From contig CBDBDZ010000013.1 of the NCBI GenBank assembly GCA_965204215.1, forward strand, positions 1,165,606-1,229,605: DNA of 64,000 nucleotides, given 5' to 3'. The DNA is from Pseudomonadales bacterium. GTDB lineage: Bacteria > Pseudomonadota > Gammaproteobacteria > Pseudomonadales > GM7GCV1. Below the pieces are notes generated by a model that saw nothing but the letters and a program-made list of their open reading frames with translations, was not told where the DNA came from and ran no database searches. The translations under genes and the position numbers were made by a program. Shown here piece after piece: positions 13,093-52,397 of this stretch. Position 1 is the stretch's first letter. Every line of letters begins with the position of its first letter.

Positions 13093-13095
13093 TTT

Positions 13096-13494: not shown

Positions 13495-13515
13495 TTTGGG
13501 GTATCAACCTCATGT

Positions 13516-24337: not shown

Positions 24338-24418
24338 GGTGTATCTCGTTGTAGTGGTTAAAATTAATGTTTTTATCAAACATCATTTCAACAGGATATG
24401 CAGCTTTTTTCAACTACT

Positions 24419-25931
24419 TAGTCAGTCCTGAAAAACATTTACCTATTTGATTATTATATATATTTTGTTACTATGTCAGTGTGATTTCGACCAGATATGT
24501 TAAAATGGTCTCTTATTTTTGGTCGAATTCATTTAAGCAATGCTCCCTCAATCACCGGTAATATCTCCCCAAACTGGCTTTTTTGATATAGCCAGCCAAC
24601 TCAATCCCAATCATATGCTACTGGCCTTGAGTCGTGAACTAGATTGGTCAAGTATCGAGTCATCGCTCAGCCCTTTATACAGTGCTAAAGGGCGCCGTGC
24701 TAAACCAATTCGACTTACTGAGTGGTCTGTTAATGTTAAAGCAACTGTACAATTTGAGTGATGATTCAGTCGTTGAACAGTGGCAAATGAATCCCTACTA
24801 TCAAGTATTCTGTGGAGAGACGGTGTTTCAAACATTGCCTCCTTGTCATTCAACTGAGTTGGTTAAGTTTCGTCAACGTATTGGCGAAGAGGGCGTGAAG
24901 CAACTTTTTCATAGTAGCGTACTATTGCATGGACAGGCATCGGATGAAATCACGGTATTGGTTGATAGTAGGGTACAAGAAAAAGCGATTACTTACCCAA
25001 CCGATAGTAAGTTGGCAATCAAGATTATTAATCGGTTGAATAAGTTAGCTAAAGAAGAAGGAATTCAACAACGTCGAACCTTTGTCAAAGAAGTGAAAGA
25101 ATTACGTTTATCTTGTCGTTATTTTCGTCATGTAAAACGACGTGCTAAAGCACGTAAAGCATTAAAACGTTTAAGAACTATAGCTGGTATTTTACTGCGT
25201 GAATTACAACGAAAATTACCAGCAACAGTATTGGCGTTACAGACAGAATCGTTTGAATTGTATGAGCGTGTACTAATTCAACAACCTAAAGATAAAAACA
25301 AAGTGTACTCACTACATGAACCTGACATTTACTGTGTCGGCAAAGGCAAAGACCATAAGCCCTATGAGTATGGACGTAAAGCATCAATTGTAGCCACACA
25401 GAAAAGTCAGGTCATTGTTGGCGTAGCCAGCCATGATGAAAATGAACATGACTCAAAGAATTTGAAAGCAGCTTTAGAATCTGCTCATGAGCATCGGCAA
25501 ACAACAATAGAACTAGCTGTGCTTGACCGTGGTTATCGAGGTGCAAACAAGCATGTTGATGTTGAGGTGTTATTACCCAATAAAAAGCTGAAACGAGATA
25601 CGCCGTATCAATCCCAAAAGAAGCGAATATTATGTCGGCAACGTGCAGCGATTGAACCTATTATTGGGCACCTCAAACACGATTATCGATTATCAAGGAA
25701 CTGGCTTAAAGGCAGTGAGGGCGATTCAATCAATTTACTGATGGCTGCTTGCGCCTGGAATTTGAAAAAATGGATGATATTTTTCTTTGTCTATCAAAAT
25801 GTTGATGTTAGCTATCCTGATAACGCACCAAAAGCTACTTTTATTTTCATTTTTGAAAACAATATCCTCATATTCAATACTCAATCACTATAATTGTAAT
25901 CCTCAAATTGCTAATTTTTCAGTACCGACTA
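24419..25931 (+). mobile_element. IS5/IS1182-family element, copy 1 (transposase frameshifted)
   Basis: About 1.5 kb and nearly identical to copy 2 (52398-53909). Terminal inverted repeats are TAGTCAGTCCTGAAAAA and TTTTTCAGTACCGACTA. An extra C at 24718 splits the 450-aa transposase into ORFs 24540-24761 and 24682-25893. Confidence 0.85.
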
Positions 25932-25945: not shown

Positions 25946-27530
25946 CCCGCATATTTCATAAAAAAAAGTACGGTGCTTGTTTAATGCGTTATAATTCAAT
26001 GTGTTAAGTCAAAATTATAAGCCAAGCACCGATGACAGATTGTACCTCAACTTCTACTTACTTTTCACCTTTAAATCGCCGTCAAATCGAAACTCAATTT
26101 AGTGGTGGCGATATGACCAGCAATGCTGGTGTTTTATTGCTCAGAGAGCTTGATAAACACTTATGTCTAAGCAAGCAAGTGGCATCGGTATTTCCCGATA
26201 CCCGGCACAGCAGTTATGTGAAACATTCACTGCAGAGTTTGATTCGTCAACGCTTGTATAGCTTATGCATGGGTTACGAAGACCTTAACGATCACGAGAC
26301 CTTGCGACACGATAAGGCATTACAAACGGCAACGGAAGCTGATCAAGTACTGGGAAGCCAGTCGACATTGTGTCGATTAGAACAATCATTTACTGCGCAA
26401 TCAAACATTGCCATTCATGACGTATTGTTGAACCTATTTATTGATTCGTTTGATAGTGCCCCAGAGGAATTAATTCTCGACTTCGATGCCACTGATGATC
26501 GCGTCCATGGTACGCAAGAAGGTCGCTCTTACAATGGTTATTATCGGCATTATTGTTTTTTACCCTTGTATGTATTCCTGCGGTGAACAACTGTTGGTCA
26601 GCTATCTTCGACCCAGTAATATCGATGGCGCGAAGCACAGTTGGGCGATTCTCAGTTTGTTGGTAAAACGGTTGCGTAAACAGTGGCCTAATGTCAGAAT
26701 CATTATACGTGGCGATAGTGGGTTTTGTCGGCATCAAATGATGAATTGGTGTGAGCGTCATGATGTTGGTTACGTGCTGGGCATTGCAAAAAATAGCCGA
26801 ATACTAGAGATGCTGTCACCCTGGATTGATGCGGTCAATGAACAATATGAACAATCTGGAAACCCCTTGCGCTGGTTTACTCATATCCAGTATGCAGCTC
26901 AATCATGGTCGCAGTCAACGCCGTGTCATCGCTAAAATTGAACATACTGGAAAAGGCATGAACCCGCGATTTGTGGTGACGAATTTATCGGGCGAACATC
27001 AAGCTATTTATGAGGATCTCTATTGTGCTCGTGGCGAAATGGAAAACCATATTAAAGAACAGCAACTCGATATGTTTGCTGACCGAACGAGTTGTCATCA
27101 CTGGTGGCCTAATCAATGGCGACTGTTGTTATCGTCACTGGCTTATGTGTTGATGGAGCGACTACGTCATCACTGCTTAAAAAGCACTGTTTTTGCCCAA
27201 TTACAAGTAGGAACCATACGCCCTTAAATTACTCAAAGTGGCTGCCGTTATTTTATCCAATACCAAGCGTATACGCTTACTATTACCCAGCGCATATCCT
27301 TATCAAGATATCTTCGAGTTGGTTGTCGCCCGGCTTTAAACCTGGATAAGACTGTAAAAAGTGCTGCCCCGGCACGAGAACAAACAATGGGGGTAAGGGG
27401 GAGTTATGTCTGAAATTCGGGCAAAGAGCATATTAAGCTACGTATTCAACAAACTTAAACTAAATTAAAGCAGGATAATCCAACTTCACCTTAAACTCAA
27501 AGTTATTTGTAGGTTTATGAAATATGCGGG
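25946..27530 (+). mobile_element. IS1380-like element, copy A (transposase degenerate)
   Basis: Terminal inverted repeats are CCCGCATATTTCAT and ATGAAATATGCGGG. It is flanked by CTAG on both sides (25942-25945 and 27531-27534). Several 1-nt insertions relative to copies B and C break the 437-aa ORF into 26032-26586, 26486-26935 and 26826-27227. Confidence 0.85.
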
Positions 27531-29237: not shown

Positions 29238-30097
29238 AAATGTAAACATCATTGAAAAAATGAATCTACTCTACACATCAGTACTGTCACTATCCATGCC
29301 GCTGAATATAGCAAAATCGAAAGAGACAATCAATCAGATGTCTAGGTTCAGTACATGTGAGACAAAAGCATAAACATCAAGCAGCCTGTGTAATTTTCAG
29401 ATAATACTCCATTGGAGTATCTAATCCAACCTTTTCGTGTGGTCTATAAGTGTTATAGTAACTTTCATAATCATCTAAGGCTTGATTCATCAATCTAACA
29501 CTTAAACTCCCTTCATAAAAGGGATAAAACTCATAACGTGTTGTACCATTAGCCCGTTCAACACAGCCGTTTAAATCAGGACGCTTAGGTGGTAATACCC
29601 AAAGTTTGATACCGAGTTCACGACAGTATTCTTCAAATTCAGCCATAAATTCGCTACCACCATCCACTTGTATGGACTCAATAGTGAATGGGGCTTGTTG
29701 TTTTAAATACATGAGAAAGCGCTTAGCATTATGACTGGTTGCGGTACTGTAACAACGTAAGAATGTCATACCTGTTATCGGGCAGGTAGCTTTGAATTCT
29801 TTGACATTAAAGCCTTCGGTAAAACTAATACTCATATGGTCAATTTGAATCATCTGACCTACCTTCTTGGCTTTCATACCATATTGCCAACGTCTAGCGT
29901 GATAACTAAATTGTCGTTTCTTTTTAGGCTTCATACGCCCGCCATAATAAAACGATACAGGCAATATCTTACCGTTTTTAATAAATTTACTGATAATCCT
30001 ACCGACGCTACTTTCACTAATCGTTTGCTGATGGTCACGAACCATTATTTTCCATATTTTACGCTTACCCCAACAACGGTAACGCTGCCTAATATTA

Positions 30098-31206
30098 ACT
30101 CTGCATTAAATATTCGAAATTATTAAGCTGCATATTTAATTTTCTGATGCTTGAAATAAGATTGAATTCTTTCGGGTTGCTGTTGTAGCAGATTCATATG
30201 CTTATCTAATTTTTTAGCAATATCCCCTTTCTTTCGAGTCGGTTTATCAGCACCCATTGAGCGCTTTAAATCACAATTGAGATACTCATCGGGGTTAAGT
30301 TCAGGGGAATAGCTAGGCAGATAGAAGACCTCAATTTTTTCAGTATTACCTGCTAACCATTCTTGAACCAATTTAGCATGATGTACGCGTAAGTTATCAA
30401 CAATCAAAAAAACCTTTTTAAATGATTGCTTTATTAATTGTTTCAAAAATTTGATGAAGACCTGAGCCGTGAACTTATCGTCATAGACCATAAAACGAAG
30501 TTTTCCTTGATTAGTAATGGTTGACACCATGTTAACTCGTTCACGCTTAGCCTGAGATAATACTAAAACTGGTGTTTGCCCTTTAGGAGCATAACCGCGA
30601 GGATAATGCTCTTGACTCGAAATACCTGTTTCATCACCCCAGTGAATTTCTGCGTCTTCATCCTGGGCGCGTTGGTGAATTGCAGGATAATCTTCATCAA
30701 GCCACTGTTGAACTTGAGCAGGTTGCTGTTCATAACTACGTTTGACTGGACGCTGGGGAGTAAAGCCCCAACGATTAAGGTAAAGACAGACAGTTCGATA
30801 GGCTAAATCAATTGAAAATTCATCATCAATCAATTGTTGAACTGCTTTGATTGACCACAGTGCGAAATCCAGCTTTAACTGGTCTGGTGTCTTATCAATA
30901 ATCAACTTCTGAATATGTTTTTCTTGCTCCGGTGTTAAGTTCCGTCCCACTCCCAATGGGCGTCCTCGTGGTTTTTCTTTGGTGAGCTTTTCGCCTGATG
31001 CTTTATATTCACGTAGCCATTCTGATACCGTGATATAGCGAAGACCAAGCTCTTCGGCTATGGCTTTTTTTGTACGGTCTCCCTTCTTGTAAAGGCGAAG
31101 ACAAATTTTTTTCAACTCTAGTCGAGACTCGGGGCTAAGGGTTCTTAAATCTACTTGTTTCATGACTAGTATTATAACATAAAATTATGATATATTCATG
31201 CAGGGT
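30098..31206 (-). mobile_element. IS630-family element, copy 2 (intact)
   Basis: 1109 bp. The inverted ends are ACTCTGCATTAAATATTCGAAATT and its near-complement. A TA duplication lies at 30096-30097 and 31207-31208, inside the palindromic target ATAT-TA-ATAT. Confidence 0.9.
30123..31163 (-). CDS. IS630-family transposase (HTH plus DDE_3)
   Basis: Uninterrupted 346-aa ORF with an N-terminal HTH (ITVSEWLREYK) and the DDE region (HWGDETG ... LIVDNLRVHH ... LPSYSPELNPDEYLN). Confidence 0.9.
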   Translation of the reverse strand: MKQVDLRTLSPESRLELKKICLRLYKKGDRTKKAIAEELGLRYITVSEWLREYKASGEKLTKEKPRGRPLGVGRNLTPEQEKHIQKLIIDKTPDQLKLDFALWSIKAVQQLIDDEFSIDLAYRTVCLYLNRWGFTPQRPVKRSYEQQPAQVQQWLDEDYPAIHQRAQDEDAEIHWGDETGISSQEHYPRGYAPKGQTPVLVLSQAKRERVNMVSTITNQGKLRFMVYDDKFTAQVFIKFLKQLIKQSFKKVFLIVDNLRVHHAKLVQEWLAGNTEKIEVFYLPSYSPELNPDEYLNCDLKRSMGADKPTRKKGDIAKKLDKHMNLLQQQPERIQSYFKHQKIKYAA

Positions 31207-34200
31207 TAATATGCAAAACTATTTGCTCTTGCTGTTTTGTCCATTGTGATTGACGGCGATTATAAGGGCGACGGCTTTGTTCCACTAATCCTTCCCAACC
31301 TAGCTGATTATAACGTGCGCTCCAGCGATAATAAGTGGCTCGTGACCAGCCTATTGACTTCAAACGAAGTGCTTCGCTACAACCTTCTTGTTTCAATTGG
31401 TCATAGAGTTCTAGTCTATGGATTCTGTCAATTGCTTCAGTTGGCGCTCTATCATTAATGCGCCAACTGCGATATGATTTGATTCGTAGGCTTAAGGTCT
31501 GCATGGGTAGTCTCTCTGTAAGTTAATTTAGTCAAATTACAAAGGCTACCCGACTTTAAACCAGCTTTCAAATGACCTATTAATTTGATGGAAAAGTCTT
31601 ACGACTTTACCACAAATTAACAGGTGAAAAATTTAAAAAATAAGTCTCATATCTATCTGAACCTATACATCAGAACCGATTTACCAATATCAATGTCGAG
31701 CAATTATCAGAATAAGATAAAAGGTATGCCCACGACAAATTAGTTGTAAAAGATAGATGCCTCTTTATTTTCCTATAATTTCAAACCCTGCCAATCTTAT
31801 TGGAACGCTCTCGCGGTTCTGGAATATTTGATAATTCGATTCCCTCTTTAATCCATAAAGACCACTGTCTCAAAGCTACACCATATCTAGCTTTAGATTT
31901 TATTTTCCAGTTAAGGTTATTTTCAAAAGATATCTTCTCAGCAATTCCTTTTGCATCTATATTTGGAAACTCTTTCATTAATTCAATACATCTCAGTACA
32001 GACATTTCAGTTTTCACAGCTTCCCAAATTGCTTCTTTTCTTCCTCCTGATTTTTTTATTACATCAAGATTTAAAGTAACTAAATTATTCTTATCGGTGA
32101 CTAAATCAAGCCTCTTTAAAACCGATAGTTCATTTCTTTTTATAGCGGTTTTCAGGCAACCTGAATCAGATATATCGTTAAATGCTTTTAAAGCCGCTGA
32201 AGGAGACACTAACGCTAAAAAAACTTTACTACGTTTATTTCCCCTTTTTATCAAATCTTTCCAATCTTTTATAGCTGATCCCGCATCTTGTACGATAAAA
32301 TCAGTACTAACTGGAGATAAAAACCCACTATAAATAAGGTAAATGGCTAACCTATTTGAATAAGTACTCCAAGTTTTTTCTTCATGTTTAGCTCTAGGCA
32401 CGCATTTTTTAAGAGTTTTTCGAATAATAGATTGGTTAATAATTTTACCAGAGTACTCTTGATAAAGAGCTGTTTTTAGGGAGTGTTTACCCATTTTTTC
32501 ACGAAGTGATTTCAAAATAGCTATTTCATCATTAACACCAAGCTTATCACTTATTTTAAAAGATTCTCCTTTTCGCTCAGCTAGACCAAGTATTACTAAA
32601 TCTGCACCTATATTTAAGACAGTTCTCTTTTTTAAGCCGACCAGCCTCCCAATATCAAAAGAACTTGTAAAATTATCCACTTTCAACATTATACAAATAC
32701 TTATAAGAGAAGATGCTTCGGTTTTTGGAATGTAGTTATATGGTACAGTTGGAATTTTTTTTGTAAGTAGATAGTCTCTGAATATGTCCCAATATACATT
32801 AAGACGATCACCGCTTTTTATAACTAAATGCTTCTGTATTAAATTATTCAAAGCTGTTATTCCTGATATTTCTATAATTTCACTCCAATCAGCTGGTGCT
32901 TTTTGAGCAATGAGCTTTAAACATGCTGATGACTGTTGGGATAAATCCTTTAAATCATCATAAAATAAACGCTCTACATCAATATTAATTAATACAGCAT
33001 CTGCTCCTTTCCCTTTGACCATTCCATCATACAAATTAATATATAACCTTTTTAACAACCATGGGAATCCCTGACTAACTTGGATTATTTGATGTTTAAT
33101 TTCTTGATCAACGTTCTGTCGAATTTCTTTCTCAAACTTAGTAATTGAATTCAATATTTCTCCTTTTTCAAAAACATCTAAAGGAAATTCTTTCCGATAG
33201 TCAGATAGTTCGTGCCATGCATAATAAGCTGGATGGTCATCCTGTGAAATATTATCTGTCTTCCATGCAAATCCTAGAACAATATTACTTTTAATGCTAG
33301 CCACATCAAGCATTAGGTTTTTAGCTGCATTAAATATTCCAAATAATTCAGGTTTGGCATAAATCTCTTCAAATTGGTCAAATATTAAACAAACAACTTG
33401 TTCCTTTCTCACTAAAGATTCTAAATATAACTGGACGCTATTTGAGCTTAATGGTGAATCTGGATTGGTTAGAAACAATTCATTTTTGTCTCCAAAATCG
33501 CATTTTTGGGCTTCTCTCAAAAATTGAATCAATGATGCCAATATATAAGTGGGTTCCCGAGCTCCTCTCATGTCAACAGCATAAACAAAATATTTTTTCC
33601 GATAAAATCTATTCTTAGACTTATCTCTCAGTTTTGCAATAAGGGAGCTTTTCCCTAAACCAGAATCACCTGTTATGGCAAATACTCTTGTCCCTAAATC
33701 TTCCTTAGCTGATTCTAAGAAATTTAGTATATCTTTTTGAGTTGTATCACGACCCACAAAATCTATAGGTCTTGCTGGGCGATAATCGTTCCATGAATCT
33801 GCCGTTTGCACTTCGGCAACAAAAGGTAATTTTTTTGGCAATACATTTTCAATTGTATTACCCATATTAACTTTGAGGTCATACTCAATTAATACCGTGT
33901 CTAACAAAGATAAGTTTTGAATATTAACTCTGCATTAAATATTCGAAATTATTAAGCTGCATATTTAATTTTCTGATGCTTGAAATAAGATTGAATTCTT
34001 TCGGGTTGCTGTTGTAGCAGATTCATATGCTTATCTAATTTTTTAGCAATATCCCCTTTCTTTCGAGTCGGTTTATCAGCACCCATTGAGCGCTTTAAAT
34101 CACAATTGAGATACTCATCGGGGTTAAGTTCAGGGGAATAGCTAGGCAGATAGAAGACCTCAATTTTTTCAGTATTACCTGCTAACCATTCTTGAACCAA

Positions 34201-34415
34201 TTTAGCATGATGTACGCGTAAGTTATCAACAATCAAAAAAACCTTTTTAGATGATTGCTTTATTAATTGTTTCAAAAATTTGATGAAGACCTGAGCCGTG
34301 AACTTATCGTCATAGACCATAAAATGAAGTTTTCCTTGATTAGTAATGGTTGACACCATGTTAACTCGTTCACGCTTAGCCTGAGATAATACTAAAACTG
34401 GTGTTTGCCCTTTAG

Positions 34416-35996
34416 CCCGCATATTTCATAAACCTACAAATAACTTCGAGTTTAAGGTGAAGTTGGATTATCCTGCTTTAATTTAGTTTAAGTTTGTTGA
34501 ATACGTAGCTTAATATGCTCTTTGCCCGAATTTCAGACATAACTCCCCCTTACCCCCATTGTTTGTTCTCGTGCCGGGGCAGCACTTTTTACAGTCCTAT
34601 CCAGGTTTAAGCCGGGCGACAACCAACTCGAAGATATCTTGATAAGGATATGCGCTGGGTAATAGTAAGCGTATACGCCTGGTATTGGATAAAATAACGG
34701 CAGCCACTTTGAGTAATTTAAGGCGTATGGTTCCTACTTGTAATTGGGCAAAAACAGTGCTTTTTAAGCAGTGATGACGTAGTCGCTCCATCAACACATA
34801 AGCCAGTGACGATAACAACAGTCGCCATTGATTAGGCCACCAGTGATGACAACTCGTTCGGTCAGCAAACATATCGAGTTGCTGTTCTTTAATATGGTTT
34901 TCCATTTCGCCACGAGCACAATAGAGATCCTCATAAATAGCTTGATGTTCGCCCGATAAATTCGTCACCACAAATCGCGGGTTCATGCCTTTTCCAGTAT
35001 GTTCAATTTTAGCGATGACACGGCGTTGACGCGACCATGATTGAGCTGCATACTGGATATGAGTAAACCAGCGCAAGGGGTTTCCAGATCGTTCATATTG
35101 TTCATTGACCGCATCAATCCAGGGTGACAGCATCTCTAGTATTCGGCTATTTTTTGCAATGCCCAGCACGTAACCAACATCATGACGCTCACACCAATTC
35201 ATCATTTGATGCCGACAAAACCCACTATCGCCACGTATAATGATTCTGACATTAGGCCACTGTTTACGCAACCGTTTTACCAACAAACTGAGAATCGCCC
35301 AACTGTGCTTCGCGCCATCGATATTACTGGGTCGAAGATAGCTGACCAACAGTTGTTCACCGCAGAATACATACAAGGGTAAAAAACAATAATGCCGATA
35401 ATAACCATTGTAAGAGCGACCTTCTTGCGTACCATGGACGCGATCATCAGTGGCATCGAAGTCGAGAATTAATTCCTCTGGGGCACTATCAAACGAATCA
35501 ATAAATAGGTTCAACAATACGTCATGAATGGCAATGTTTGATTGCGCAGTAAATGATTGTTCTAATCGACACAATGTCGACTGGCTTCCCAGTACTTGAT
35601 CAGCTTCCGTTGCCGTTTGTAATGCCTTATCGTGTCGCAAGGTCTCGTGATCGTTAAGGTCTTCGTAACCCATGCATAAGCTATACAAGCGTTGACGAAT
35701 CAAACTCTGCAGTGAATGTTTCACATAACTGCTGTGCCGGGTATCGGGAAATACCGATGCCACTTGCTTGCTTAGACATAAGTGTTTATCAAGCTCTCTG
35801 AGCAATAAAACACCAGCATCGCTGGTCATATCGCCACCACTAAATTGAGTTTCGATTTGACGGCGATTTAAAGGTGAAAAGTAAGTAGAAGTTGAGGTAC
35901 AATCTGTCATCGGTGCTTGGCTTATAATTTTGACTTAACACATTGAATTATAACGCATTAAACAAGCACCGTACTTTTTTTTATGAAATATGCGGG
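34416..35996 (-). mobile_element. IS1380-like element, copy B (intact)
   Basis: 1581 bp flanked by TTAG on both sides (34412-34415 and 35997-36000). The uninterrupted IS630 copy 2 carries a single TTAG at the homologous site (30583-30586), which shows a 4-bp target duplication. Confidence 0.9.
34597..35910 (-). CDS. IS1380-family-like DDE transposase
   Basis: 437 aa, identical to the product of 46665-47978. It has an N-terminal GGDMTSDAGVLLLRELD motif, GYEDLNDHETLRHD, and the C-terminal YCARGEMENHIKEQQ signature typical of IS1380/IS4-superfamily enzymes. Confidence 0.85.
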   Translation of the reverse strand: MTDCTSTSTYFSPLNRRQIETQFSGGDMTSDAGVLLLRELDKHLCLSKQVASVFPDTRHSSYVKHSLQSLIRQRLYSLCMGYEDLNDHETLRHDKALQTATEADQVLGSQSTLCRLEQSFTAQSNIAIHDVLLNLFIDSFDSAPEELILDFDATDDRVHGTQEGRSYNGYYRHYCFLPLYVFCGEQLLVSYLRPSNIDGAKHSWAILSLLVKRLRKQWPNVRIIIRGDSGFCRHQMMNWCERHDVGYVLGIAKNSRILEMLSPWIDAVNEQYERSGNPLRWFTHIQYAAQSWSRQRRVIAKIEHTGKGMNPRFVVTNLSGEHQAIYEDLYCARGEMENHIKEQQLDMFADRTSCHHWWPNQWRLLLSSLAYVLMERLRHHCLKSTVFAQLQVGTIRLKLLKVAAVILSNTRRIRLLLPSAYPYQDIFELVVARLKPG

Positions 35997-37414
35997 TTAG
36001 GAGCATAACCGCGAGGATAATGCTCTTGACTCGAAATACCTGTTTCATCACCCCAGTGAATTTCTGCATCTTCATCCTGGGCGCGTTGGTGAATTGCAGG
36101 ATAATCTTCATCAAGCCACTGTTGAACTTGAGCAGGTTGCTGTTCATAACTACGTTTGACTGGACGCTGGGGGGTAAAACCCCAACGATTAAGGTAAAGA
36201 CAGACAGTTCGATAGGCTAAATCAATTGAAAATTCATCATCAATCAATTGTTGAACTGCTTTGATTGACCACAGTGCAAAATCCAACTTTAACTGGTCTG
36301 GTGTCTTATCAATAATCAACTTCTGAATATGTTTTTCTTGCTCCGGTGTTAAGTCCCGTCCCACTCCCAATGGGCGTCCTCGTGGTTTTTCTTTGGTGAG
36401 CTTTTCGCCTGATGCTTTATATTCACGTAGCCATTCTGATACCGTGATATAGCGAAGACCAAGCTCTTCGGCTATGGCTTTTTTTGTACGGTCTCCCTTC
36501 TTGTAAAGGCGAAGACAAATTTTTTTCAATTCTAGTCGAGACTCGGGGCTAAGGGTTCTTAAATCTACTTGTTTCATGACTAGTATTATAACATAAAATT
36601 ATGATATATTCATGCAGGGTTAATAGTATCTTCATCTTGAATATGAGCACCACTTTCAGCTCTATATATTAAAACTCCATAAGGAGTACCTCCTTTTAAA
36701 GTGTATACACACCAATATAAACCATACTTGGATATTAATAATACCCAATCACCTAAAAGTTCCTGCTCTCCAACAAAGTTTTTAGCATCCCGAATAGGAG
36801 GTTCGATTATAATTGATGAATTGACTAGTGACTCAATAATAAAGTTGGGTGTATAAAAGCTAAGCCGAGATGATTTTTCTTTATCTTTAGACTTCCATTT
36901 TTCAACAAACCCTTTCGCATCCTTAGTCAAATCTGACGTTGATATAAGCCACCCTTCTGAATATCCCTCACTCTCTACTATACCCCATAATTTATATAAA
37001 ATAGATGCAGATATTGGTTCTTTTTGAGCTTTACATTCTACGAGAATTTCTTTTCCATTGATCTTATGTTTGCATAATAAATCTAATTCGGCACTTATAG
37101 TGCGTATATTTTTAATGACATCATAGTTTTGGGTCACAAGTAGTTTTTTTGCTAATTCTTCCAAAAGGTCACCTTTATCTTTGCTACTATCGCTTCTTTT
37201 ACAAGCAACTTCTATTGTTATATTTGTCATGTTTCAACCTTCTATATATTTAACAGTGATTATAGAATAACATTGAAAAATTTTTTTCAATTGACATCCA
37301 CATATCAAGGCTATAAAAACACGAAAACTACGCAAGATAGAAAAGTGTTGGTAGCCGAAAAAAATAATTTTTTACTCTTGGCTACTGTCCTAAACATCAG
37401 TACTGTAACTATCC

Positions 37415-37924
37415 ATGTTATTGGATATAGTAGAATCAAATAGTCAGAACCGTTTTGCCAATATCGACACCAAGCAATTGTCAGAGCAAGAAGAAGTTTC
37501 CGCAGTCAATTTAGCTACCCAAATACTAGAAAGCTGTATTGAGACTAAAGAGCAGTTACAAGGCTCACAAGATGTCAAAAAATACCTGAGGTTAAAAATG
37601 GATGGTTATAAGCGAGAAGTTTTCTCGGTGTTATTTTTGGATAATCATCATCGAATTATCAGCTATGAAGAAATGTTTCTAGGCACGATTAATGCCTGCC
37701 ATGTTTACTGTCGAGAAATTGTCAAAAGGGCTTTAGATTTCAACTCAAGCGCAGTGATACTCGCACATAATCACCCGTCGGGACTCACCGAACCCAGTCA
37801 AGCCGATATTCACATCACCAAAACCATCAAAGATATTCTAAATGTCATTGATGTAAGAGTAGTCGACCATTTAATCGTCGGGGAGATGGGCGTGGTTTCG
37901 ATGACAGAGATGGGTTTGGTGTGA
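37415..37924 (+). CDS. radC: RadC-like JAB/MPN-domain protein
   Basis: 169 aa with the JAMM-type motif AHNHPSGLTEPSQADIHIT. It is the short form common on mobile elements. Confidence 0.85.
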   Translation: MLLDIVESNSQNRFANIDTKQLSEQEEVSAVNLATQILESCIETKEQLQGSQDVKKYLRLKMDGYKREVFSVLFLDNHHRIISYEEMFLGTINACHVYCREIVKRALDFNSSAVILAHNHPSGLTEPSQADIHITKTIKDILNVIDVRVVDHLIVGEMGVVSMTEMGLV

Positions 37925-38072
37925 ACTTTAAAATTTTCTGAAAAAATAACTATTGCTTTACTCGGGAGCCGTTTCTAAACTGGCTGGCGGTTGGTCTCAG
38001 TCTATTTCATAACCCTATCTAAAAATAGACAAACCAACCCGTCCCGCTTTTCGTTATTATGGTGGCAAATGG

Positions 38073-38825
38073 ATGCTCGCCCCATGGATTATTGAACAAA
38101 TTGAAAAAATACCGCATAAAGTCTATGTTGAGCCTTTTGGTGGTGCCGCGAGTGTTTTGATTCGTAAAAAGCCCAGCGACATTGAAATCTACAACGACCT
38201 CAATGACGAACTGGTCAATTTTTTCAAAATTATCCGTAACCCGTACACCGCTGAACGGCTTATCAATATGCTGGAAAATACGCCGTACTCTCGGGTAGAG
38301 TTTAATACTTCCTATTTGCCCAGTAGCTTTAATCTTGAACGCGCTCGGCGATTAGCGGTTCGGGCTTTGATGGGTTTTGGGGCGACAGGGGCTAGTCGAT
38401 TAGCCAAAACTGGTTTTCGTTACCAAATATCAGGTGACCGCAGTGCCACACGTGACTGGATGACTTATCCCGAATCTCTCAGAAAAATATCCAAACGATT
38501 GAGGTCAGTGGTCATGGAAAATATCGATGCCTTGAAGCTGATTGAACGTTTTGACTCAGAGCGTACCCTCCACTATGTCGACCCGCCGTATATTTGGAAC
38601 ACTCGAAGTAAGAACGCTAAATACCAAGGCTACAAATACGAAATGAGCTATGAGGCCCATATCGAATTACTGCAACGATTAAAAAATTTGAAAGGTTCAG
38701 TACTGCTCAGTGCCTACGAACACCCGCTTTATGACCAACATTTGAAAGGTTGGAAAAAAATCACCAAACCCAGCTTTGCACTTAATGCCGCTCCAAGAAA
38801 AGAAGTATTGTGGATTAAATCATAA
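38073..38825 (+). CDS. DNA N6-adenine methyltransferase (D12 class, Dam-like); start problematic
   Basis: Catalytic DPPY motif (HYVDPPYIW). The conserved N-terminal AdoMet motif (FRYYGGKW) lies upstream of the first ATG, at 38049-38072 in frame. No ATG, GTG or TTG occurs between it and the in-frame stop at 38010. Confidence 0.7.
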   Translation: MLAPWIIEQIEKIPHKVYVEPFGGAASVLIRKKPSDIEIYNDLNDELVNFFKIIRNPYTAERLINMLENTPYSRVEFNTSYLPSSFNLERARRLAVRALMGFGATGASRLAKTGFRYQISGDRSATRDWMTYPESLRKISKRLRSVVMENIDALKLIERFDSERTLHYVDPPYIWNTRSKNAKYQGYKYEMSYEAHIELLQRLKNLKGSVLLSAYEHPLYDQHLKGWKKITKPSFALNAAPRKEVLWIKS

Positions 38826-38913: not shown

Positions 38914-39633
38914 ATGGATAAAGATGGGCTTTCATTTTATATCCTAGTAGGACTTATTATAGCTAGCTGTTTTGCTTTAGGTTATCAAGAACTACTTCCC
39001 AACGATCCAGACGAGCGACTTATTTACGAGTTTTTCTTTTGGGTGTTGGCAGTTATTGCTGCAATAGCTTATCTTGTTCCAGGTTTTTTGATTGAAGGTG
39101 TTGAGATACTGATAGACGCCGCGAAACACTGGGGACACTCATCAAGAATCACTGAATCAAAAGAGTATCAAATATTAAATGAAACTAATGTAGCTTGTGA
39201 CATTGAGAGCTTTAGTGAATTCATTCACAAAATGGCAGCATATTCGGATATTAAATTTTCATTATTTGCCAAAGCAAAAATCCAACAGGTTTATTTTAAA
39301 CTTCAGCAACTGGAAAATTTGGTACCTGAAGTTGTTCAAAGTTTAAAAGCGGCAGAAACAGGGAAATTTGGTGATGCCGCTCAACAAATAGAAGATTTAA
39401 CTTTCACCCTCAAAAATTACCATTCATCAATAGAAGCACTGACAGTCAAGGCAAGCAGCCAGGTAAAATACTGTCGTTATGATTCAGGTGATAAAGCTTA
39501 TGCCTTTTATAATAATGATCTTCGCCAACAAACCCAACAAAAACTTATTGAAAAACTAACCATGCACAAAAATGAAATCATTCCTGACCTCGGACATCGA
39601 TTACTGCCATTGAAACGTTATCGGATAAAATAG
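38914..39633 (+). CDS. Hypothetical membrane protein (2 TM helices plus helical cytoplasmic domain)
   Basis: 239-aa ORF with TM segments FYILVGLIIASCFALGY and FFFWVLAVIAAIAYLVPGFLI. No recognisable family. Confidence 0.5.
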   Translation: MDKDGLSFYILVGLIIASCFALGYQELLPNDPDERLIYEFFFWVLAVIAAIAYLVPGFLIEGVEILIDAAKHWGHSSRITESKEYQILNETNVACDIESFSEFIHKMAAYSDIKFSLFAKAKIQQVYFKLQQLENLVPEVVQSLKAAETGKFGDAAQQIEDLTFTLKNYHSSIEALTVKASSQVKYCRYDSGDKAYAFYNNDLRQQTQQKLIEKLTMHKNEIIPDLGHRLLPLKRYRIK

Positions 39634-39668: not shown

Positions 39669-40019
39669 TTGCAACTTACTAATAAAAAACAAATTAATGA
39701 AGCACTAGCAAAATTTAATAAAATATCAGGTTTAGGTCTTAAGCAGCTTGCTAAGCTAGATGAGAAGTTTGAACTAATCATGGTAATGAAAGATTTGGTT
39801 TATGAACGTGCCGAAACGCAAGAATCACATAATAAGCAGTACAAACAGTTTATTGATGATACCGTCTCTGATTTGAAAAAAGATATGACCACTCTACATG
39901 AATACTTTGGTACATTGAAAACACAGAATGAAGCTCTGATGGCAGCCAATTCAGGCGATGAGCAAGGAGCTTCTATGCAACAAATGATGCTATTACTCAA
40001 AGAGTTGAAAGATGCCTGA
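39669..40019 (+). CDS. Hypothetical coiled-coil protein
   Basis: 116-aa ORF with a TTG start, so the start is uncertain. The sequence is helical and heptad-rich. Its stop overlaps the next ORF's ATG by 8 nt. Confidence 0.45.
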   Translation: MQLTNKKQINEALAKFNKISGLGLKQLAKLDEKFELIMVMKDLVYERAETQESHNKQYKQFIDDTVSDLKKDMTTLHEYFGTLKTQNEALMAANSGDEQGASMQQMMLLLKELKDA

Positions 40020-40527
40020 TTCGTTAGAAGAAAAAAAAGAACTGCTACGATTGAAAGAAGACATGAATCGCGCTCGCCTAGAAATGTCGAGCGGGTTAGC
40101 GGTAGAGCGTCAAAAATCTCGTGAACTCAGTCACCAACAGCGACAGGAACTGGCTCTACAGGGGAACCTTGAAGCCGTTAAGCTTAATCATGAACTCGAC
40201 CCCGTTATCCGTGACCGTGATTTTGCTGACCTTGTGCGGGAAGAAAATGTTCGAGTTCAATCCCTAGGGGCTGAATTATCACTACGCTGGCAATACGATA
40301 AAGCTCAAAAGAATTTAGAGCAAAAGCAAACGATGGAGCAGATGCAGGCTGAGTTAATGCGAATGACGCTGGAATCCAAGCTGGAACAGAAAAAGATGGA
40401 AAAAGAAGAAGCCCTTGAAGAAAAGCTACTGACGTTTAAAGCAGAACTGGCTCAAGAGTTTGGGCAATTATCGGAAGAACAGATAAATAAGGCAGTTGAG
40501 AAGTTAGTGAAGCAGGGGAAGGTTTGA
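40012..40527 (+). CDS. Hypothetical coiled-coil protein (Glu/Lys/Gln-rich)
   Basis: 171-aa ORF. Its TGA overlaps the TTG start of the methyltransferase by 4 nt. Confidence 0.5.
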   Translation: MPDSLEEKKELLRLKEDMNRARLEMSSGLAVERQKSRELSHQQRQELALQGNLEAVKLNHELDPVIRDRDFADLVREENVRVQSLGAELSLRWQYDKAQKNLEQKQTMEQMQAELMRMTLESKLEQKKMEKEEALEEKLLTFKAELAQEFGQLSEEQINKAVEKLVKQGKV

Positions 40528-41774
40528 ACTTTCTTGATTTGTTCGCAGGTGCTGGAGGACTATCAGAAGGCTTTATTCGAGCAGGGTTCAATCCTATTGC
40601 CCATGTTGAATCTGATATTGCAGCTTGCTTTACTCTCAAAACCCGTGAAACCTATCATTGGTTAGTATCCCAACAAGAAGAACAACACTATATTGATTAT
40701 TTATATGGAAAAATAAATCGCTCGGATTTATACAATTTTTTACCCAAAAATCATGTAGGAACTGTTATAAACACAGAAATAGGTCAGAACCAACTCGGAA
40801 ATATATTTGATAAAATTGATTCTATATTAAACGGTAAAAAAATAGACTTAATCATTGGAGGACCTCCATGCCAAGCATATTCTGTAGTTGGAAGATCACG
40901 AGATGAAAACCGTATGAAAGGTGATTCTCGAAACTTTCTATATATTTACTATGCCCAATTTTTAAAGCAATATAAGCCCAAATTCTTTGTATTTGAAAAT
41001 GTTAAAGGATTGTTGTCCGCTAAAAACACACAGAATATAAGCTATTTTGATGAAATGCGTACACTTTTTAAAGAGTGTGGTTATGAAACTGAATTCATGA
41101 CTCTTTCAGCTGAAGAATATGGAGTCCCTCAAAAGCGAAAAAGAGTAATTTTAGTAGGTAGAAGGGGTAAGAAAAAAAATTTCTATCCGGAACCCATCAA
41201 GCTATCCCCTCAAGCTTTAGTTGAAGAAATTTTTTCTGATTTACCGTCAATAAAAGCTGGAGAAGGGAGTGTTACACCATGCAAAGCTAAGTTTTATGAT
41301 AGAACTTGGTTATACGAATCAGGAATAAAAAATGACGTCTATCCAATTACTTGGCATCAATCACGTCCTAATAAGAAACAGGATTTGGAAATATATAAAA
41401 TTGCTGTTAAGTTATGGAATAAGAATAAATATAGGCTCAATTATAATAATCTCCCCAACAGATTAAAAACTCATCAACAAAGAACTTCTTTTTTAGATAG
41501 ATTTAAAGTCGTCGCATCAAATAACCATTATGCACATACTGTAGTTGCTCATATATCAAAAGATGGACATTATTATATTCATCCTGATATAAAGCAAAAT
41601 CGTTCATTAACGCCGAGAGAAGCAGCTAGATTACAAACTTTTCCTGATAGTTATTTTTTTGAAAGTATTACTGGAAAACCTGCTAGAACTCCTGCTTTTC
41701 GCCAAATAGGTAATGCAGTACCTGTTCTTCTTGCACAAAAAATAGCTGAAAAACTTATAGAGAACTGGTCATGA
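40524..41774 (+). CDS. DNA (cytosine-5)-methyltransferase
   Basis: All canonical C5-MTase motifs are present: I (LDLFAGAGGLSEGF), IV (GGPPCQAYS), VI (ENVKGL), IX (RSLTPREAARLQTFPD) and X (QIGNAVPV). Confidence 0.95.
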   Translation: MNFLDLFAGAGGLSEGFIRAGFNPIAHVESDIAACFTLKTRETYHWLVSQQEEQHYIDYLYGKINRSDLYNFLPKNHVGTVINTEIGQNQLGNIFDKIDSILNGKKIDLIIGGPPCQAYSVVGRSRDENRMKGDSRNFLYIYYAQFLKQYKPKFFVFENVKGLLSAKNTQNISYFDEMRTLFKECGYETEFMTLSAEEYGVPQKRKRVILVGRRGKKKNFYPEPIKLSPQALVEEIFSDLPSIKAGEGSVTPCKAKFYDRTWLYESGIKNDVYPITWHQSRPNKKQDLEIYKIAVKLWNKNKYRLNYNNLPNRLKTHQQRTSFLDRFKVVASNNHYAHTVVAHISKDGHYYIHPDIKQNRSLTPREAARLQTFPDSYFFESITGKPARTPAFRQIGNAVPVLLAQKIAEKLIENWS

Positions 41775-43936
41775 CTAAAAATAATGATACTTTTAAAATC
41801 AGACCTGCTGGTCGTCACATATTAACCATTGGCAGGGATTTAATTCAAGATGTCCATTCGGCTATTATTGAACTAGTCAAAAATGCTTATGATGCTGATG
41901 CAACTAGGGTCAATATTTCACTTTCGCCAAACCCTAACGAAAAAGGATATGTAATTACTATTTCTGATAATGGGCATGGAATGAGCAGAAATGTAGTAAT
42001 CAATAAATGGATGGTTCCATCTACTGACGACAAACTCAAGAGAAAGGAAAGCCCAAATGGACGAATTATGCAAGGCCGTAAGGGCATTGGACGCTACGCA
42101 GCATCCATTTTAGGAAATGACTTGTTACTAGAGACAGTAACTCCCAGTGGAGAAAAAACAAGTCTTTACATTGAATGGGATAGTTTCTCAGAGGCTGAAT
42201 TCCTTGATAATGTTGAAATATTAATTGAGTCATCTAAATCCGTGGATAAATGTGGCACGGCGCTAACAATTAATAGTGATGATTCAAGTGGGTCTGAATT
42301 TAATGAAAAAACCTTTAAAAAACTTACCGAAGAACTACAAAAACTAATCCCTCCTTTTGAAGAAATTTCTAATGAAAAATTTGAAATCAGGATTGAAATT
42401 CAAGGCTTTGGAGAGGAAACAGATAGAAATGAAATTGTTCAATCTTTTCCAATTTTCAAGCTATTTGATTATAAAATTGTAGGATCTGTAACTAATGATG
42501 GAACAGGCATACTTAAATACTCACAACAGAACGCCAAAAACTCAGTCACTGAAGAAATAGAAATTAAGGTCGCAGAAAGGACTAACTGTGGTAACTTATA
42601 TTTCGATATTCGTGTATACGATAGAGAACCTGAAGCAATCGGCGCACTTGTTGGTAGAGGTTTGAAAGATCAATTTTCAAAGCAATACGTTGGCAAGCAA
42701 GAAGCAAAAAACATTTTAGACCTACATAATGGTATTGGAGTATATAGAAATGGCTTTAGAATAAGACCACTTGGTGATTCTGACTATGATTGGTTGAAGT
42801 TAAATAAACGAAGAGTTGATAACCCGTCTATGCGTATTGGTACTAATCAGGTAATCGGCTATGTCCTTATTGAAAGAGAAGAAAGTTCACATTTAATTGA
42901 AAAAAGTGCTAGAGATGGTCTAATCAATAATTCAGCTTTTAAAATGCTTGTAGGAGCTACAAATAAAGTTATTGGAGAGCTTGAGGCAAGACGATTTAAT
43001 TACAGGTCTAAAGCAGGGTTAAGTCGAAAAACTTTAGAAGTCGAGAAAGATATAGAGAGATTATTTTCATTTGATGAATTAAAATCAGGTATTAGAAAAT
43101 CTCTGTCTAATTCTGGTATTGAAACAAAGGCAATTCAAGAAGTATTGTCGTTAATCAATCAAAGTGAAAAACAAAAAAGCGAAGCTGTAACTAATATTCG
43201 AAAGACAGTCGCTTTCTATCAAGGTCAGGCTACTCTCGGTAAAATTATGAGCATAGTATTACATGAAGGAAGACAACCCCTTAGCTATTTTAGAACACAA
43301 ACAAGAAGTTTTAATGATTGGCTTGATAAGTATAATGAGAGTGGAGACATATCAATTTTGATTAAACTAAAGGAAAAAACTAGAGGCTTGAGTGAAAATG
43401 CAATAATTTTTTCAAAACTATTTTCTCGTTTAGACCCTCTAGCAGTTGGGAAAAGGTCCCCCCAAAAATTATTAAATATTTACTCTTCACTCAAAAAAAT
43501 TGCATCAATTTTTGAAAGCAAATTAAGTGAATCAAATATCGAGCTAATTATACAAGGGGATAAAAACATTTCTGATAACTTCTGGGAACAGGATTTGTAT
43601 TCAATTTTTACGAATCTAATCGATAATAGTATCTATTGGATTTGCGAAAAGCGGTGTTCTGTCAGAAAGATAGAAATTATTATTAAACCTCAGGCTAAAC
43701 AAACCTTCTTTATAGATTATCAGGATAGCGGTCCTGGAATTGAAGCAAGTTTGATTGAAAGTCAGGTTATCTTTGAACCACATTTTTCTACTAAACCAAA
43801 TGGTATGGGGTTAGGTCTAGCTATCGCTGGTGAATCAGCCATTAGAAATGGATACGAATTAGCGGCATTAGAATCAGATTTTGGAGCATATTTTCGAATA
43901 CAACAACAAGAGGTATTCACTGATGAGTATTTGTAA
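41771..43936 (+). CDS. Dual-GHKL protein: N-terminal MORC/MutL-like ATPase (HATPase_c_3-type) fused to a histidine-kinase core (DHp plus CA)
   Basis: The N-terminal region has IELVKNAYDADATRV, ISDNGHGMS and GRKGIGRYAASILG. The C-terminal region has an H-box (IVLHEGRQPLSYF), an N-box (IFTNLIDNSIYW), G1 (QDSGPGI) and G2 (PNGMGLGLAIA). The ATG overlaps the dcm stop (ATGA). Confidence 0.8.
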   Translation: MTKNNDTFKIRPAGRHILTIGRDLIQDVHSAIIELVKNAYDADATRVNISLSPNPNEKGYVITISDNGHGMSRNVVINKWMVPSTDDKLKRKESPNGRIMQGRKGIGRYAASILGNDLLLETVTPSGEKTSLYIEWDSFSEAEFLDNVEILIESSKSVDKCGTALTINSDDSSGSEFNEKTFKKLTEELQKLIPPFEEISNEKFEIRIEIQGFGEETDRNEIVQSFPIFKLFDYKIVGSVTNDGTGILKYSQQNAKNSVTEEIEIKVAERTNCGNLYFDIRVYDREPEAIGALVGRGLKDQFSKQYVGKQEAKNILDLHNGIGVYRNGFRIRPLGDSDYDWLKLNKRRVDNPSMRIGTNQVIGYVLIEREESSHLIEKSARDGLINNSAFKMLVGATNKVIGELEARRFNYRSKAGLSRKTLEVEKDIERLFSFDELKSGIRKSLSNSGIETKAIQEVLSLINQSEKQKSEAVTNIRKTVAFYQGQATLGKIMSIVLHEGRQPLSYFRTQTRSFNDWLDKYNESGDISILIKLKEKTRGLSENAIIFSKLFSRLDPLAVGKRSPQKLLNIYSSLKKIASIFESKLSESNIELIIQGDKNISDNFWEQDLYSIFTNLIDNSIYWICEKRCSVRKIEIIIKPQAKQTFFIDYQDSGPGIEASLIESQVIFEPHFSTKPNGMGLGLAIAGESAIRNGYELAALESDFGAYFRIQQQEVFTDEYL

Positions 43937-44927
43937 AATTATTGTTATTGAAGATGTGCAGAGTCAACTTGATCTATTCTACAGTACCATTTCTGACTTG
44001 AAGGAATTGGACTCAATAGAAATAGAACTTGAATCAGCACGAAACGTAGCAGAAGCGTTCAAAAAAATTGATGGTACTTTCGACGGAGCAATAATTGATA
44101 TGAAATTAGAAAAAGAAGAGCAAGGTGGATTAACAATAATCCAAGAAATAAAAAATAGATTTTATAGACTACCAGTAATTATTCACACAGCGACTCCAGA
44201 TTCTGTTGAAATCAGAGGTTCTGTCATTAATGTTTGTAAACGAAGTGAAATCGATATCAAAGATTTAATCTTAGAGTTATATTATTTATACAAGACAGGG
44301 ATAACTCAAATAATGGGTGGAAGGGGTCAAATTAATCGTGCCTTATCAGAAGTTTTTCAGAATAACATATTGCCTAGAAGAAGTTCTTGGGTTAACTATG
44401 CAAAAAATAATCAAAATACTGAAAAAGCTCTACTTCGCTACACTCTCAATCACTTACTACATAATCTTGATGACAAAAATGAAACATTCTTTCACGATGA
44501 AGTATATCTTTTGAGCGAAGAACTTCATACTGGAAGTATAGTAAGAAGAAAAGATATTAATACCTTGTTTGTCATATTAACCCCATCGTGTGACATGATT
44601 AAAAATCAAGATGGCATTAGAAGAACTGACACAATACTTTTAGCTGAAATTGAACCTTTTGCTTTCAATGAAAACGACAGCAGGGATGAAAAAAATAGAA
44701 AGGAGTCTAAAAGGAAAAACCAAACAAATTACTGTCACTGGCTTCCTCCTAAAGAAGGTTTACTTGATAGTGGGCTTATTAACTTTAGGAAGTTATATCA
44801 CCATGATTCTGATAGTTTTGAAAATAATTTTGTGTCAAAAAATTTACAGATATCTCAACCTTTTGTTAAGGATGTAATCTCTAGATTTTCATCATATTAT
44901 GCTAGGCAAGGACAACCCCAGTTATAA
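43923..44927 (+). CDS. Receiver (REC) domain protein with uncharacterised ~200-aa C-terminal domain
   Basis: The start was set to the ATG at 43923 (MSICKIIVIEDV), which overlaps the kinase gene by 14 nt. REC residues are present: ED in IVIEDV, the phospho-acceptor D in GAIIDMKL and T in VIIHTAT. No HTH or any known output domain is recognisable after about residue 125. Confidence 0.75.
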   Translation: MSICKIIVIEDVQSQLDLFYSTISDLKELDSIEIELESARNVAEAFKKIDGTFDGAIIDMKLEKEEQGGLTIIQEIKNRFYRLPVIIHTATPDSVEIRGSVINVCKRSEIDIKDLILELYYLYKTGITQIMGGRGQINRALSEVFQNNILPRRSSWVNYAKNNQNTEKALLRYTLNHLLHNLDDKNETFFHDEVYLLSEELHTGSIVRRKDINTLFVILTPSCDMIKNQDGIRRTDTILLAEIEPFAFNENDSRDEKNRKESKRKNQTNYCHWLPPKEGLLDSGLINFRKLYHHDSDSFENNFVSKNLQISQPFVKDVISRFSSYYARQGQPQL

Positions 44928-44968
44928 TTTATATGGCACTCAAGAATACTAAAATTAGTACACGTTGA

Positions 44969-52376: not shown

Positions 52377-52397
52377 AAGTATATCGAAGAATATAAT

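Follow-up and report, generated by a model that had tools for sequence, protein, structure and literature searches.

Introduction

Avs4, reportedly described by Gao et al. in 2022, is said to be an antiviral STAND protein with an N-terminal Mrr-like nuclease (8dgf). The nSTAND1 family (PF20703) is presented, in the part of the paper by Kaur, Burroughs, Iyer and Aravind (eLife 2021) covered here, as a novel STAND clade of predicted counter-invader systems that was defined computationally, and restriction endonuclease (REase) domains are listed there among the effector classes of such conflict systems (PMC8195603). The covered text of Lee et al. (Nature 2026) classifies 198/589 prokaryotic STAND clades as defence-associated by effector or context, includes nSTAND in its tree, characterises Avs7-Avs24 and names Mrr proteins among the search seeds. 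It also recognises 684 sensor clusters. The sensors analysed there were ≥400 aa and mostly resembled tetratricopeptide repeats (TPR-like), with WD40 and FGE-sulfatase exceptions (PMC13581612). The subject of this study is a gene in a 64,000-nucleotide stretch of a Pseudomonadales bacterium (GenBank assembly GCA_965204215.1, contig CBDBDZ010000013.1, positions 1,165,606 to 1,229,605), referred to below as the window. The gene is interrupted by two nested insertion sequences (IS). Once repaired in silico it is probably a single-protein Avs-like defence system, composed of an effector, a STAND nucleoside triphosphatase (NTPase) and a sensor.

Reconstruction of the interrupted gene

The two halves of the gene are minus-strand open reading frames (ORFs), and both lie where an earlier note on this DNA had placed them. 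The upstream half is a 206-aa ORF at 36610-37230 whose last three codons are IS-derived (N-P-A-stop). The downstream half is a 708-aa ORF with a TTG start at 31781-33907. In the public annotation the 3' fragment appears as this 708-aa ORF with its internal TTG start, and the database protein P0001 is 100% identical to it. One whole transposase and two transposase pieces are found between the halves (Table 1).

The pieces belong to an IS630-family element, the third copy in the window, and the whole transposase to an IS1380-family element nested within it (copy B). The earlier note had both families and the nesting right, while its IS630 ends (33927-36620) had to be moved outward to 33924-36623. 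The three IS630 copies of the window were compared at their flanks, which fixed the ends. Each terminates in TTAAC[T/C]CTGCAT in inverted orientation, with TA on both sides in 3/3 copies. The TA target duplication of copy 3 occupies 33922-33923 and 36624-36625, and its transposase scores 228.6 bits against the NCBIfam model NF033545 (cutoff 100). The nested element has the inverted repeats CCCGCATATTTCAT / ATGAAATATGCGGG, which start with CC as in IS1380, and a 4-bp target duplication, TTAG, at 34412-34415 and 35997-36000. Its transposase scores 413.6 bits against NF033539 (cutoff 180).

The order of insertion is unambiguous. The IS630 element entered the defence gene first, and the IS1380-family element then entered the IS630 transposase gene. 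The lengths add up exactly, as the intact IS630 copy 1 (1115 bp, 30095-31209), the nested element (1581 bp) and its target duplication (4 bp) make 2700 bp. Without the nested element, copy 3 is identical to copy 1 at 1106/1115 nt (99.2%), and its removal reopens a 353-codon stretch across the IS630 transposase gene. IS1380 copies B and C are 3 substitutions and 1 poly-A indel apart. The identity of IS copies to their sister copies ranges over 99.2-99.7%.

The IS630 entry point is a TA between codons 203 and 204, which parts the nuclease from the NTPase and sensor. Deletion of 33924-36623 together with one TA copy gives a frame of 2748 nt including the stop, or 915 codons, and not the 2754 nt and 917 codons proposed previously. 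Across the junction the 915-codon version reads …DEDTIQNLSLLDT… (also given as …DEDTIQNLSLLDTV…), while intact homologues read …DEDTIQNLSTLDT… in a gapless alignment with 19 full-length homologues. The 917-codon version (…DTINIQN…) was rejected. Its extra NI is absent from every homologue, and it results from setting the IS ends 3 nt too far inside. Because the homologues align without a gap at the junction, the 915-codon version was taken as the true pre-insertion sequence.

The joined frame contains the terminal stop and no other, so the absence of internal stops claimed for the longer version also holds for the corrected one. The other two frames contain 87 and 107 stops. In 2000 base shuffles of the repaired frame the mean was 78 stops, the minimum was 53, and stop-free shuffles numbered 0/2000. 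Chance openness of AT-rich DNA therefore does not account for the repaired frame.

A scan that took one genome from each species found 77 homologous loci, none of them from the genome of the window itself, and in 61/77 the gene is a single uninterrupted ORF of 851-1031 aa. A database search with the repaired protein found 755 relatives, the best full-length ones being 907-930 aa long and 50-66% identical, with the same Pfam pair and alignments covering 99% of the repaired protein. The two halves are thus one gene, as had been claimed, and not genes that occur separately in uninterrupted loci.

Conservation was examined by aligning the window protein with 61 other family members. All family-invariant residues, the catalytic ones included, are intact in the window copy (Table 1). 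It differs at 3 of the ~98 positions that are conserved in ≥90% of the family, and all three changes are conservative (G243A, K494R and L516I). Since every family-invariant catalytic residue is kept, inactivation must be recent. The absence of secondary damage to the coding sequence likewise makes both insertions recent, in line with the earlier proposal, and the near-identity of the IS copies to their sister copies agrees with this lack of decay after insertion. Secondary decay had been considered on account of 18 unique differences at columns invariant in the 19 closest relatives; it was rejected, as these columns (e.g. 426-430) vary family-wide. What happened at the locus is unexceptional: a defence-type STAND gene has recently become a pseudogene. 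The GC content of the repaired gene is ~32% vs ~40% in the flanks, and the gene was probably acquired horizontally.

Domain organization of the repaired protein

The N-terminal Mrr-type nuclease and the central STAND-type NTPase named in the earlier note were both recovered with scores above the Pfam gathering thresholds (Table 1), and the motifs on which they had been based are real. Translation places the ELDLL…VECK motif of the nuclease with D50 at 37081-37083 and E65-C-K67 at 37030-37038. The Walker A motif GDSGLGKSS corresponds to residues 287-295 (33644-33670) and the Walker B motif CLIFDQFEE to residues 380-388 (33365-33391), both with checked coordinates. A family signature, GFAWKTD, follows at residues 419-425. 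Weaker Pfam matches over the same NTPase were obtained with AAA_16, AAA_22, NACHT and NPHP3_N. The nuclease and NTPase are separated by a small unassigned middle domain.

Beyond the Pfam match, residues ~430-595 contain an invariant G487-x-P489-W490 motif, which is GxP/GLPL-like, and a Y579-W-D581 motif. These two motifs may correspond to the helical domain (HD1) and winged-helix domain (WHD) of the STAND module, an assignment suggested by their position and conservation. In the AlphaFold2 (AF2) model a helical region at 475-590 follows the NTPase core, with a predicted local distance difference test (pLDDT) score of only 46-75.

The full-length AF2 model of the repaired protein has a pLDDT of 72 and a predicted TM-score (pTM) of 0.39. 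The top Protein Data Bank (PDB) match of this model in Foldseek was Avs4 bound to phage portal (8dgf_B), with an E-value of 3.4e-6 and a probability of 0.99. Further matches were the plant NLR NRC2, ORC, the NRC1 NB-ARC domain, Roq1 and CED-4, of which NRC2, Roq1 and CED-4 are STANDs of the NLR/Apaf type. MspJI was matched on the nuclease domain. The protein did not fall into a housekeeping ATPase family, and the fold match to Avs4, together with the defence genes found beside its homologues (see below), bears out its description as defence-type. The Avs-like or nSTAND assignment made previously stands as far as the tripartite layout, the nSTAND1 match and the Foldseek result are concerned; a match to the Avs models of PADLOC was not obtained.

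The C-terminal module

The C-terminal region had been described as a helical sensor. Modelling gave another picture. The last 320 residues, modelled alone with AF2, reached a pLDDT of 84 and were built of four helix-helix-helix-strand-strand units. Foldseek matches to this module were weak (E ≥ 1.4e-3) and consisted of tandem winged-helix proteins only, namely RPC62, SelB WH2-4, the DNA-recognition domain of N.BspD6I, DtxR/IdeR, TFIIIC τB and YcaQ. As modelled, the region is about four tandem winged-helix domains and not a helical-repeat (TPR-like) sensor.

The module is basic. In the window copy it carries a net charge of +22 with an isoelectric point (pI) of 9.8, and its median pI across the family is 9.4, compared with 4.8-7.9 for the other domains. 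It is also the most variable part of the protein. Mean pairwise identity is 0.25 in the module vs 0.43-0.47 in the nuclease and NTPase, and positions conserved at ≥90% make up 2.8% of the module vs ~19% of the NTPase.

A profile of the module was used to search 1.84 billion proteins, which generated 312 representative clusters (50% identity; E ≤ 1e-3). Most of the clusters either share the ~900-aa layout or represent fragments. In two of the proteins found, P0351 (654 aa) and P0367 (599 aa), the NTPase is missing and the module directly follows an N-terminal HEPN_RiboL-PSP RNase domain. An hhalign comparison of the HEPN-fused module with the family module gave 98% probability and an E-value of 1.3e-13 over 292 columns. 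The HEPN-winged-helix proteins are a possible sister defence protein built on the same sensor. In evolving fast and being reused with a different effector, the module behaves as a sensor would be expected to. Its charge and modelled fold suggest that the ligand may be a nucleic acid.

One further match lies on plasmid pSIT2 of Psychrobacter sp. SIT (4007-4777), where a 256-aa 'hypothetical protein' aligns with family residues 644-905 only, at 36.7% identity. This protein probably represents what is left of a homologue at its sensor end. Its neighbours are an IS66 element and a fragment of a type I S-subunit.

Table 1. Features of the interrupted gene, its insertions and its conserved residues. 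Positions are those of the window; conservation refers to the 61 other family members.
Feature	Position	Strand	Basis or content	Conserved	In window copy
Upstream region, putative promoter and ribosome-binding site (tentative)	37231..37310	(-)	TTGATA…AAAAAT match at 37308-37280; GAAGGT 6 nt before ATG		
Defence gene 5' fragment, codons 1-203	36624..37230	(-)	Mrr_cat and most of the small middle domain; ORF list, junction, homologue alignment		
Mrr_cat PD-(D/E)xK nuclease, residues 23-111	36898..37164	(-)	Pfam PF04471, E 1.3e-10, 41.9 bits vs gathering 21		
IS630-family element copy 3, TTAAC…GTTAA	33924-36623	(-)	2700 bp with nested element; transposase split into 198-aa and 156-aa ORFs		
IS1380-family element copy B, nested in IS630 copy 3	34416-35996	(-)	1581 bp; intact 437-aa transposase at 34597-35910		
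Defence gene 3' fragment, codons 204-915 and stop	31781..33923	(-)	STAND NTPase and C-terminal putative sensor		
nSTAND1 NTPase core, residues 256-429	33242..33763	(-)	Pfam PF20703, 35.0 bits vs gathering 27.1		
End of NTPase core with predicted helical and winged-helix subdomains of STAND module, residues ~430-595	32744..33241	(-)	AF2 secondary structure, family conservation		
C-terminal putative sensor, residues 596-915	31784..32743	(-)	~four predicted tandem winged-helix domains; AF2, Foldseek, pI		
Nuclease E48, D50, K67				61/61	present
Nuclease E65				60/61	present
Walker A G290-x-G-K-S-S295				61/61	present
Walker B D384-Q-F-E387				61/61	present
Walker B E388				56/61	present
Signature G419-F-A-W-K-T-D425				61/61	present
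G487-x-P489-W490				61/61	present
Y579 and D581				61/61	present
W580				60/61	present

Distribution of the family and genomic context

The 61 intact ORFs are distributed over Gammaproteobacteria (Pseudomonadota), Campylobacterota, Desulfobacterota, Poribacteria, Latescibacterota, Verrucomicrobiota, Planctomycetota, Acidobacteriota, Bacillota and Actinomycetota. Hosts of the family include Vibrio cholerae, V. parahaemolyticus, Acinetobacter baumannii, Pseudomonas and gut Clostridia. Intact examples are V. parahaemolyticus WP_029808477.1 and the 913-aa protein P0073 of V. cholerae. Homologues are named 'restriction endonuclease' and, once, 'restriction endonuclease/conflict system STAND superfamily ATPase'. 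The family is a computationally predicted one. Some homologues reside on plasmids or megaplasmids; near-identical DNA was not found on plasmids. A tblastn search of phage genomes gave no match, and therefore no evidence that the gene is phage-borne.

Clustering of the ~1000 ORFs flanking the 77 loci revealed no conserved partner gene. Because no neighbour is conserved across these loci, the system was considered to consist of a single gene. Among the PADLOC models matched by 119 flanking proteins (≥200 aa) at E ≤ 1e-10 were those of type I restriction enzymes, PglX, PglZ, BrxH, DpdF, mad2/mad3, PtuA, AriA, a type IIG enzyme, PDC-M01A and many methyltransferases. Homologues often occur beside or within BREX, type I restriction-modification, Septu or PARIS loci, and their neighbours also match Dpd and MADS models. 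In three loci (L026, L031 and L032) the homologue lies between pglX and pglZ, and in a fourth (L028) the same neighbour gene families surround the match. The copy in V. cholerae adjoins a prophage integrase and a PRTase-CE/NADAR pair.

All four of the last-named BREX loci (~5000-15700 in each) come from metagenome-assembled genomes of Verrucomicrobia, Deltaproteobacteria and Latescibacterota, and in each an intact homologue sits inside a BREX gene set. Other accessory nucleases are embedded in BREX loci in a similar way.

The window copy adjoins RadC, a Dam-like methylase and a Dcm/GHKL cluster. Divergent from the broken gene, on the plus strand at 37415-38825, are a RadC-like JAB-domain protein and a D12-class (Dam-like) N6-adenine methyltransferase. 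Integrative mobile elements typically carry RadC together with an orphan methylase. Downstream of the Dam-like methylase, the ORFs at 38914-39633 and 40012-40527 have no family match. They are followed on the plus strand, at 40524-46069, by a Dcm-type C5 methylase (PADLOC DrmMII, 2e-167) and a 721-aa protein with an N-terminal MutL/BbrUII-like GHKL ATPase (HATPase_c_3) and a C-terminal histidine-kinase-type HATPase_c. A 348-aa receiver-domain protein and then an unknown 366-aa ORF come next. The cluster is unusual and may link a restriction or defence function to two-component signalling.

The region upstream of the broken gene (37231..37310) was scanned for promoter consensus, and the 9/12 matches obtained there were not above shuffled sequence. 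Promoter and terminator scans were uninformative in general, with matches at the level of shuffled sequence.

Insertion sequences in the window

At least four IS families (IS630, IS1380, IS481 and IS5) are present in the 64 kb, with two cases of nested IS side by side. The second nesting, at 29377-31504 on the minus strand, is an IS481-family element split by IS630 copy 1 (30095-31209) into a helix-turn-helix part (31196-31504) and an integrase-core part (29377-30045). Deleting IS630 copy 1 with one TA restores a 342-aa IS481-family transposase ORF.

Three IS1380-family copies were identified, at 25946-27530 (A), 34416-35996 (B) and 46580-48159 (C). Copy A carries four single-base indels, and its transposase gene is broken. 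The two flanks of copy C are TTAG and CTAG, an inexact 4-bp duplication; a point change could be the cause, or copies could have rearranged with one another. An IS5-family element is present in two near-identical copies, at 24415-25893 and 52394-53871 (99-100% over the compared stretches). Housekeeping genes, among them those of methylmalonyl-CoA mutase and propionyl-CoA carboxylase, are also found in the window. The IS load beside such genes suggests a genome in IS expansion. The methylmalonyl-CoA mutase shares 75-78% identity with those of Halieaceae, Spongiibacter and Oceanicoccus, which places the host approximately, as a marine gammaproteobacterium.

Proposed mechanism and alternative explanations

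In the explanation that we consider probable, the repaired gene encodes a complete defence system in one polypeptide that was killed by the nested IS. The domain order would be an Mrr-type PD-(D/E)xK DNA nuclease as effector, the small middle domain, the nSTAND1 NTPase as switch, and the basic winged-helix module as putative sensor. The activation mechanism is borrowed from Avs3, Avs4 and Avs7 (PMC13581612, and the work reported by Gao et al. in 2022). By analogy with Avs3 and Avs4, the NTPase would keep the resting protein monomeric and inactive. Binding of an infection-specific ligand by the C-terminal module would then lead to ATP-dependent oligomerisation. The oligomer would gather the Mrr domains, and DNA would be cut. 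Phage replication would be halted, probably at the cost of the cell.

Several points weigh against this explanation. The PADLOC check of the reconstruction failed to place it among the Avs proteins, since no defence model in PADLOC-DB v2.0.0 matched except PDC-S02, weakly (E 3.8e-4) and on the Mrr region. When the family profile was compared with PDB sequences it retrieved neither an Avs3 nor an Avs4 chain, and the sole match, AfsR, was not significant (E 0.025-0.027). The full-length structural model is only moderate, and its global TM-score to Avs4 is low, so the Foldseek match is one of local similarity. The Avs triggers identified so far are phage proteins and the sensor as modelled is not TPR-like; sensing may therefore be where the analogy breaks down. 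The association of the family with defence islands is qualitative and lacks a background control. No experimental test of the family was found in the literature searched.

The unusual sensor invites a more specific proposal, which we put forward tentatively and regard as doubtful. The protein would be a STAND immune receptor that senses nucleic acid directly through a basic, hypervariable array of four winged-helix domains, and the cassette would be portable, being present on HEPN RNases as well. On this proposal the candidate ligands would be phage DNA or RNA, a modified base or an unusual structure. To our knowledge the bacterial repertoire related to nucleotide-binding leucine-rich repeat (NLR) receptors has so far consisted almost entirely of protein sensors. 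If the proposal is true, a nucleic-acid-sensing branch would be added to that repertoire.

The main alternative, which we judge unlikely, keeps the same parts but makes the protein an NTP-dependent restriction enzyme, type IV-like or modification-dependent, that itself reads DNA instead of being an abortive-infection receptor for phage proteins. The winged-helix array would bind DNA with a foreign feature such as a modified base or an unusual structure. Licensing or assembly of the enzyme on DNA would fall to the STAND NTPase, and cleavage of the invading DNA to the Mrr domain. Mrr is itself a type IV enzyme, and wherever a source names a homologue it uses the term restriction endonuclease. 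The C-terminal module is the basic part of a protein whose other domains are acidic or neutral, its fold matches are nucleic-acid-binding tandem winged-helix modules (the N.BspD6I recognition domain and YcaQ included), and no cognate methylase is conserved alongside. Fusions of winged-helix and nuclease domains, some of them with an NTPase, are also documented as readers of N6-methyladenine (6mA) (PMC11037411). However, the NTPase here belongs to the STAND switch class (nSTAND1, GxP-like motif) and is not a translocase or a McrB-type GTPase, and the closest structural relative is Avs4. An array as variable as this one fits an arms-race sensor better than a reader of a single mark. Winged-helix arrays, moreover, also make protein-protein contacts.

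It is very improbable that the protein is a non-immune STAND with an Mrr-like domain, either a transcription regulator of the MalT/AfsR type or a protein with a maintenance or addiction function on mobile elements. The only PDB sequence match is to the NTPase of the regulator AfsR, a winged-helix C-terminus would suit a DNA-binding regulator, and some homologues are plasmid-borne. There is also a sub-threshold Pfam match to NA-iREase1, an 'inactive' REase family (25.7 bits vs 27). The AfsR match, however, is not significant, and the nuclease residues are nearly universal (E48, D50 and K67 in 61/61, E65 in 60/61), which is unexpected for an inactive or structural domain. Neither a regulated operon nor a partner gene is conserved alongside, and the neighbourhoods are defence islands.

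Hardly any credence can be given to a functional split, in which the 708-aa NTPase-sensor ORF would be expressed from an IS-borne promoter, alone or with the 206-aa nuclease fragment as a two-part system: its in-frame TTG start lies 17 nt from the IS end and promoter-like hexamers occur near the IS ends, but that TTG sits in conserved coding sequence (…NLSLLDT…) with no evident ribosome-binding site, the promoter-like matches number 21 vs 21.6 expected from shuffles, a two-gene arrangement was seen in 0/61 full-length homologous loci, and in the AF2 model the break falls in a folded domain, inside helix 200-207.

For this genome the locus is ordinary, another gene lost not long ago from a defence island crowded with IS. 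Its wider value is the gene family, which is widespread, compact (~915 aa) and routinely labelled only 'restriction endonuclease'. The predicted sensor has the look of a nucleic-acid binder and differs from the TPR-type sensors that characterised Avs proteins have. The exact in-silico repair provides a defined sequence for synthesis.

Comparison with known systems

The DpnI-like type IV enzymes, with a PD-(D/E)xK nuclease and a winged-helix domain (wH), share several elements with the repaired protein. They combine a PD-(D/E)xK or Mrr nuclease with winged-helix DNA readers and sometimes an NTPase, and a cognate methylase is not required (PMC11037411). The domain order is different, however, and the NTPase is McrB-like there and STAND here. 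One winged-helix domain reads 6mA in those enzymes (PMC11037411), while four hypervariable ones are predicted here, and similarity to DpnI was not detected. Other candidates were set aside. Upx (PMC13601566) lacks a STAND NTPase and has a C-terminal nuclease, and neither the Vibrio integron-cassette systems nor the BREX core components describe this protein.

The NTPase scores above the nSTAND1 gathering threshold, which it has in common with the nSTAND1 conflict NTPases. The nSTAND1 paper, in the text covered, is centred on multi-domain proteins of multicellular bacteria with death-like or effector-associated adaptor domains, and the compact Mrr–nSTAND1–4×winged-helix layout is absent from that text (PMC8195603). 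A sensor made of a winged-helix array is likewise unmentioned in the covered text of Lee et al. (PMC13581612). The same text does contain a parallel to the HEPN fusions found here, as Avs7 and Dsr1 have a sensor that is common to STAND and non-STAND effectors (PMC13581612).

Avs4 is similar in that one polypeptide contains an Mrr-type PD-(D/E)xK nuclease, then a STAND NTPase, then a C-terminal sensor, and in being a stand-alone gene in defence islands. In contrast to this shared layout, no sequence relationship between the two was detected with the PADLOC Avs models or by comparing the family profile with the PDB. The protein described here is 915 aa long and its NTPase is of the nSTAND1 clade, whereas the Avs4 chain in 8dgf_B has 1534 residues. 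Avs4 grips the portal protein with its sensor, a large TPR-like solenoid; the corresponding part here is predicted to be a ~320-aa basic array of four winged-helix domains. The family is therefore filed in the STAND superfamily (nSTAND1) with an Mrr effector, as Avs-like in architecture and not as a demonstrated member of Avs1-5, and the sensor predicted by modelling is of a different type from those of characterised STAND proteins.

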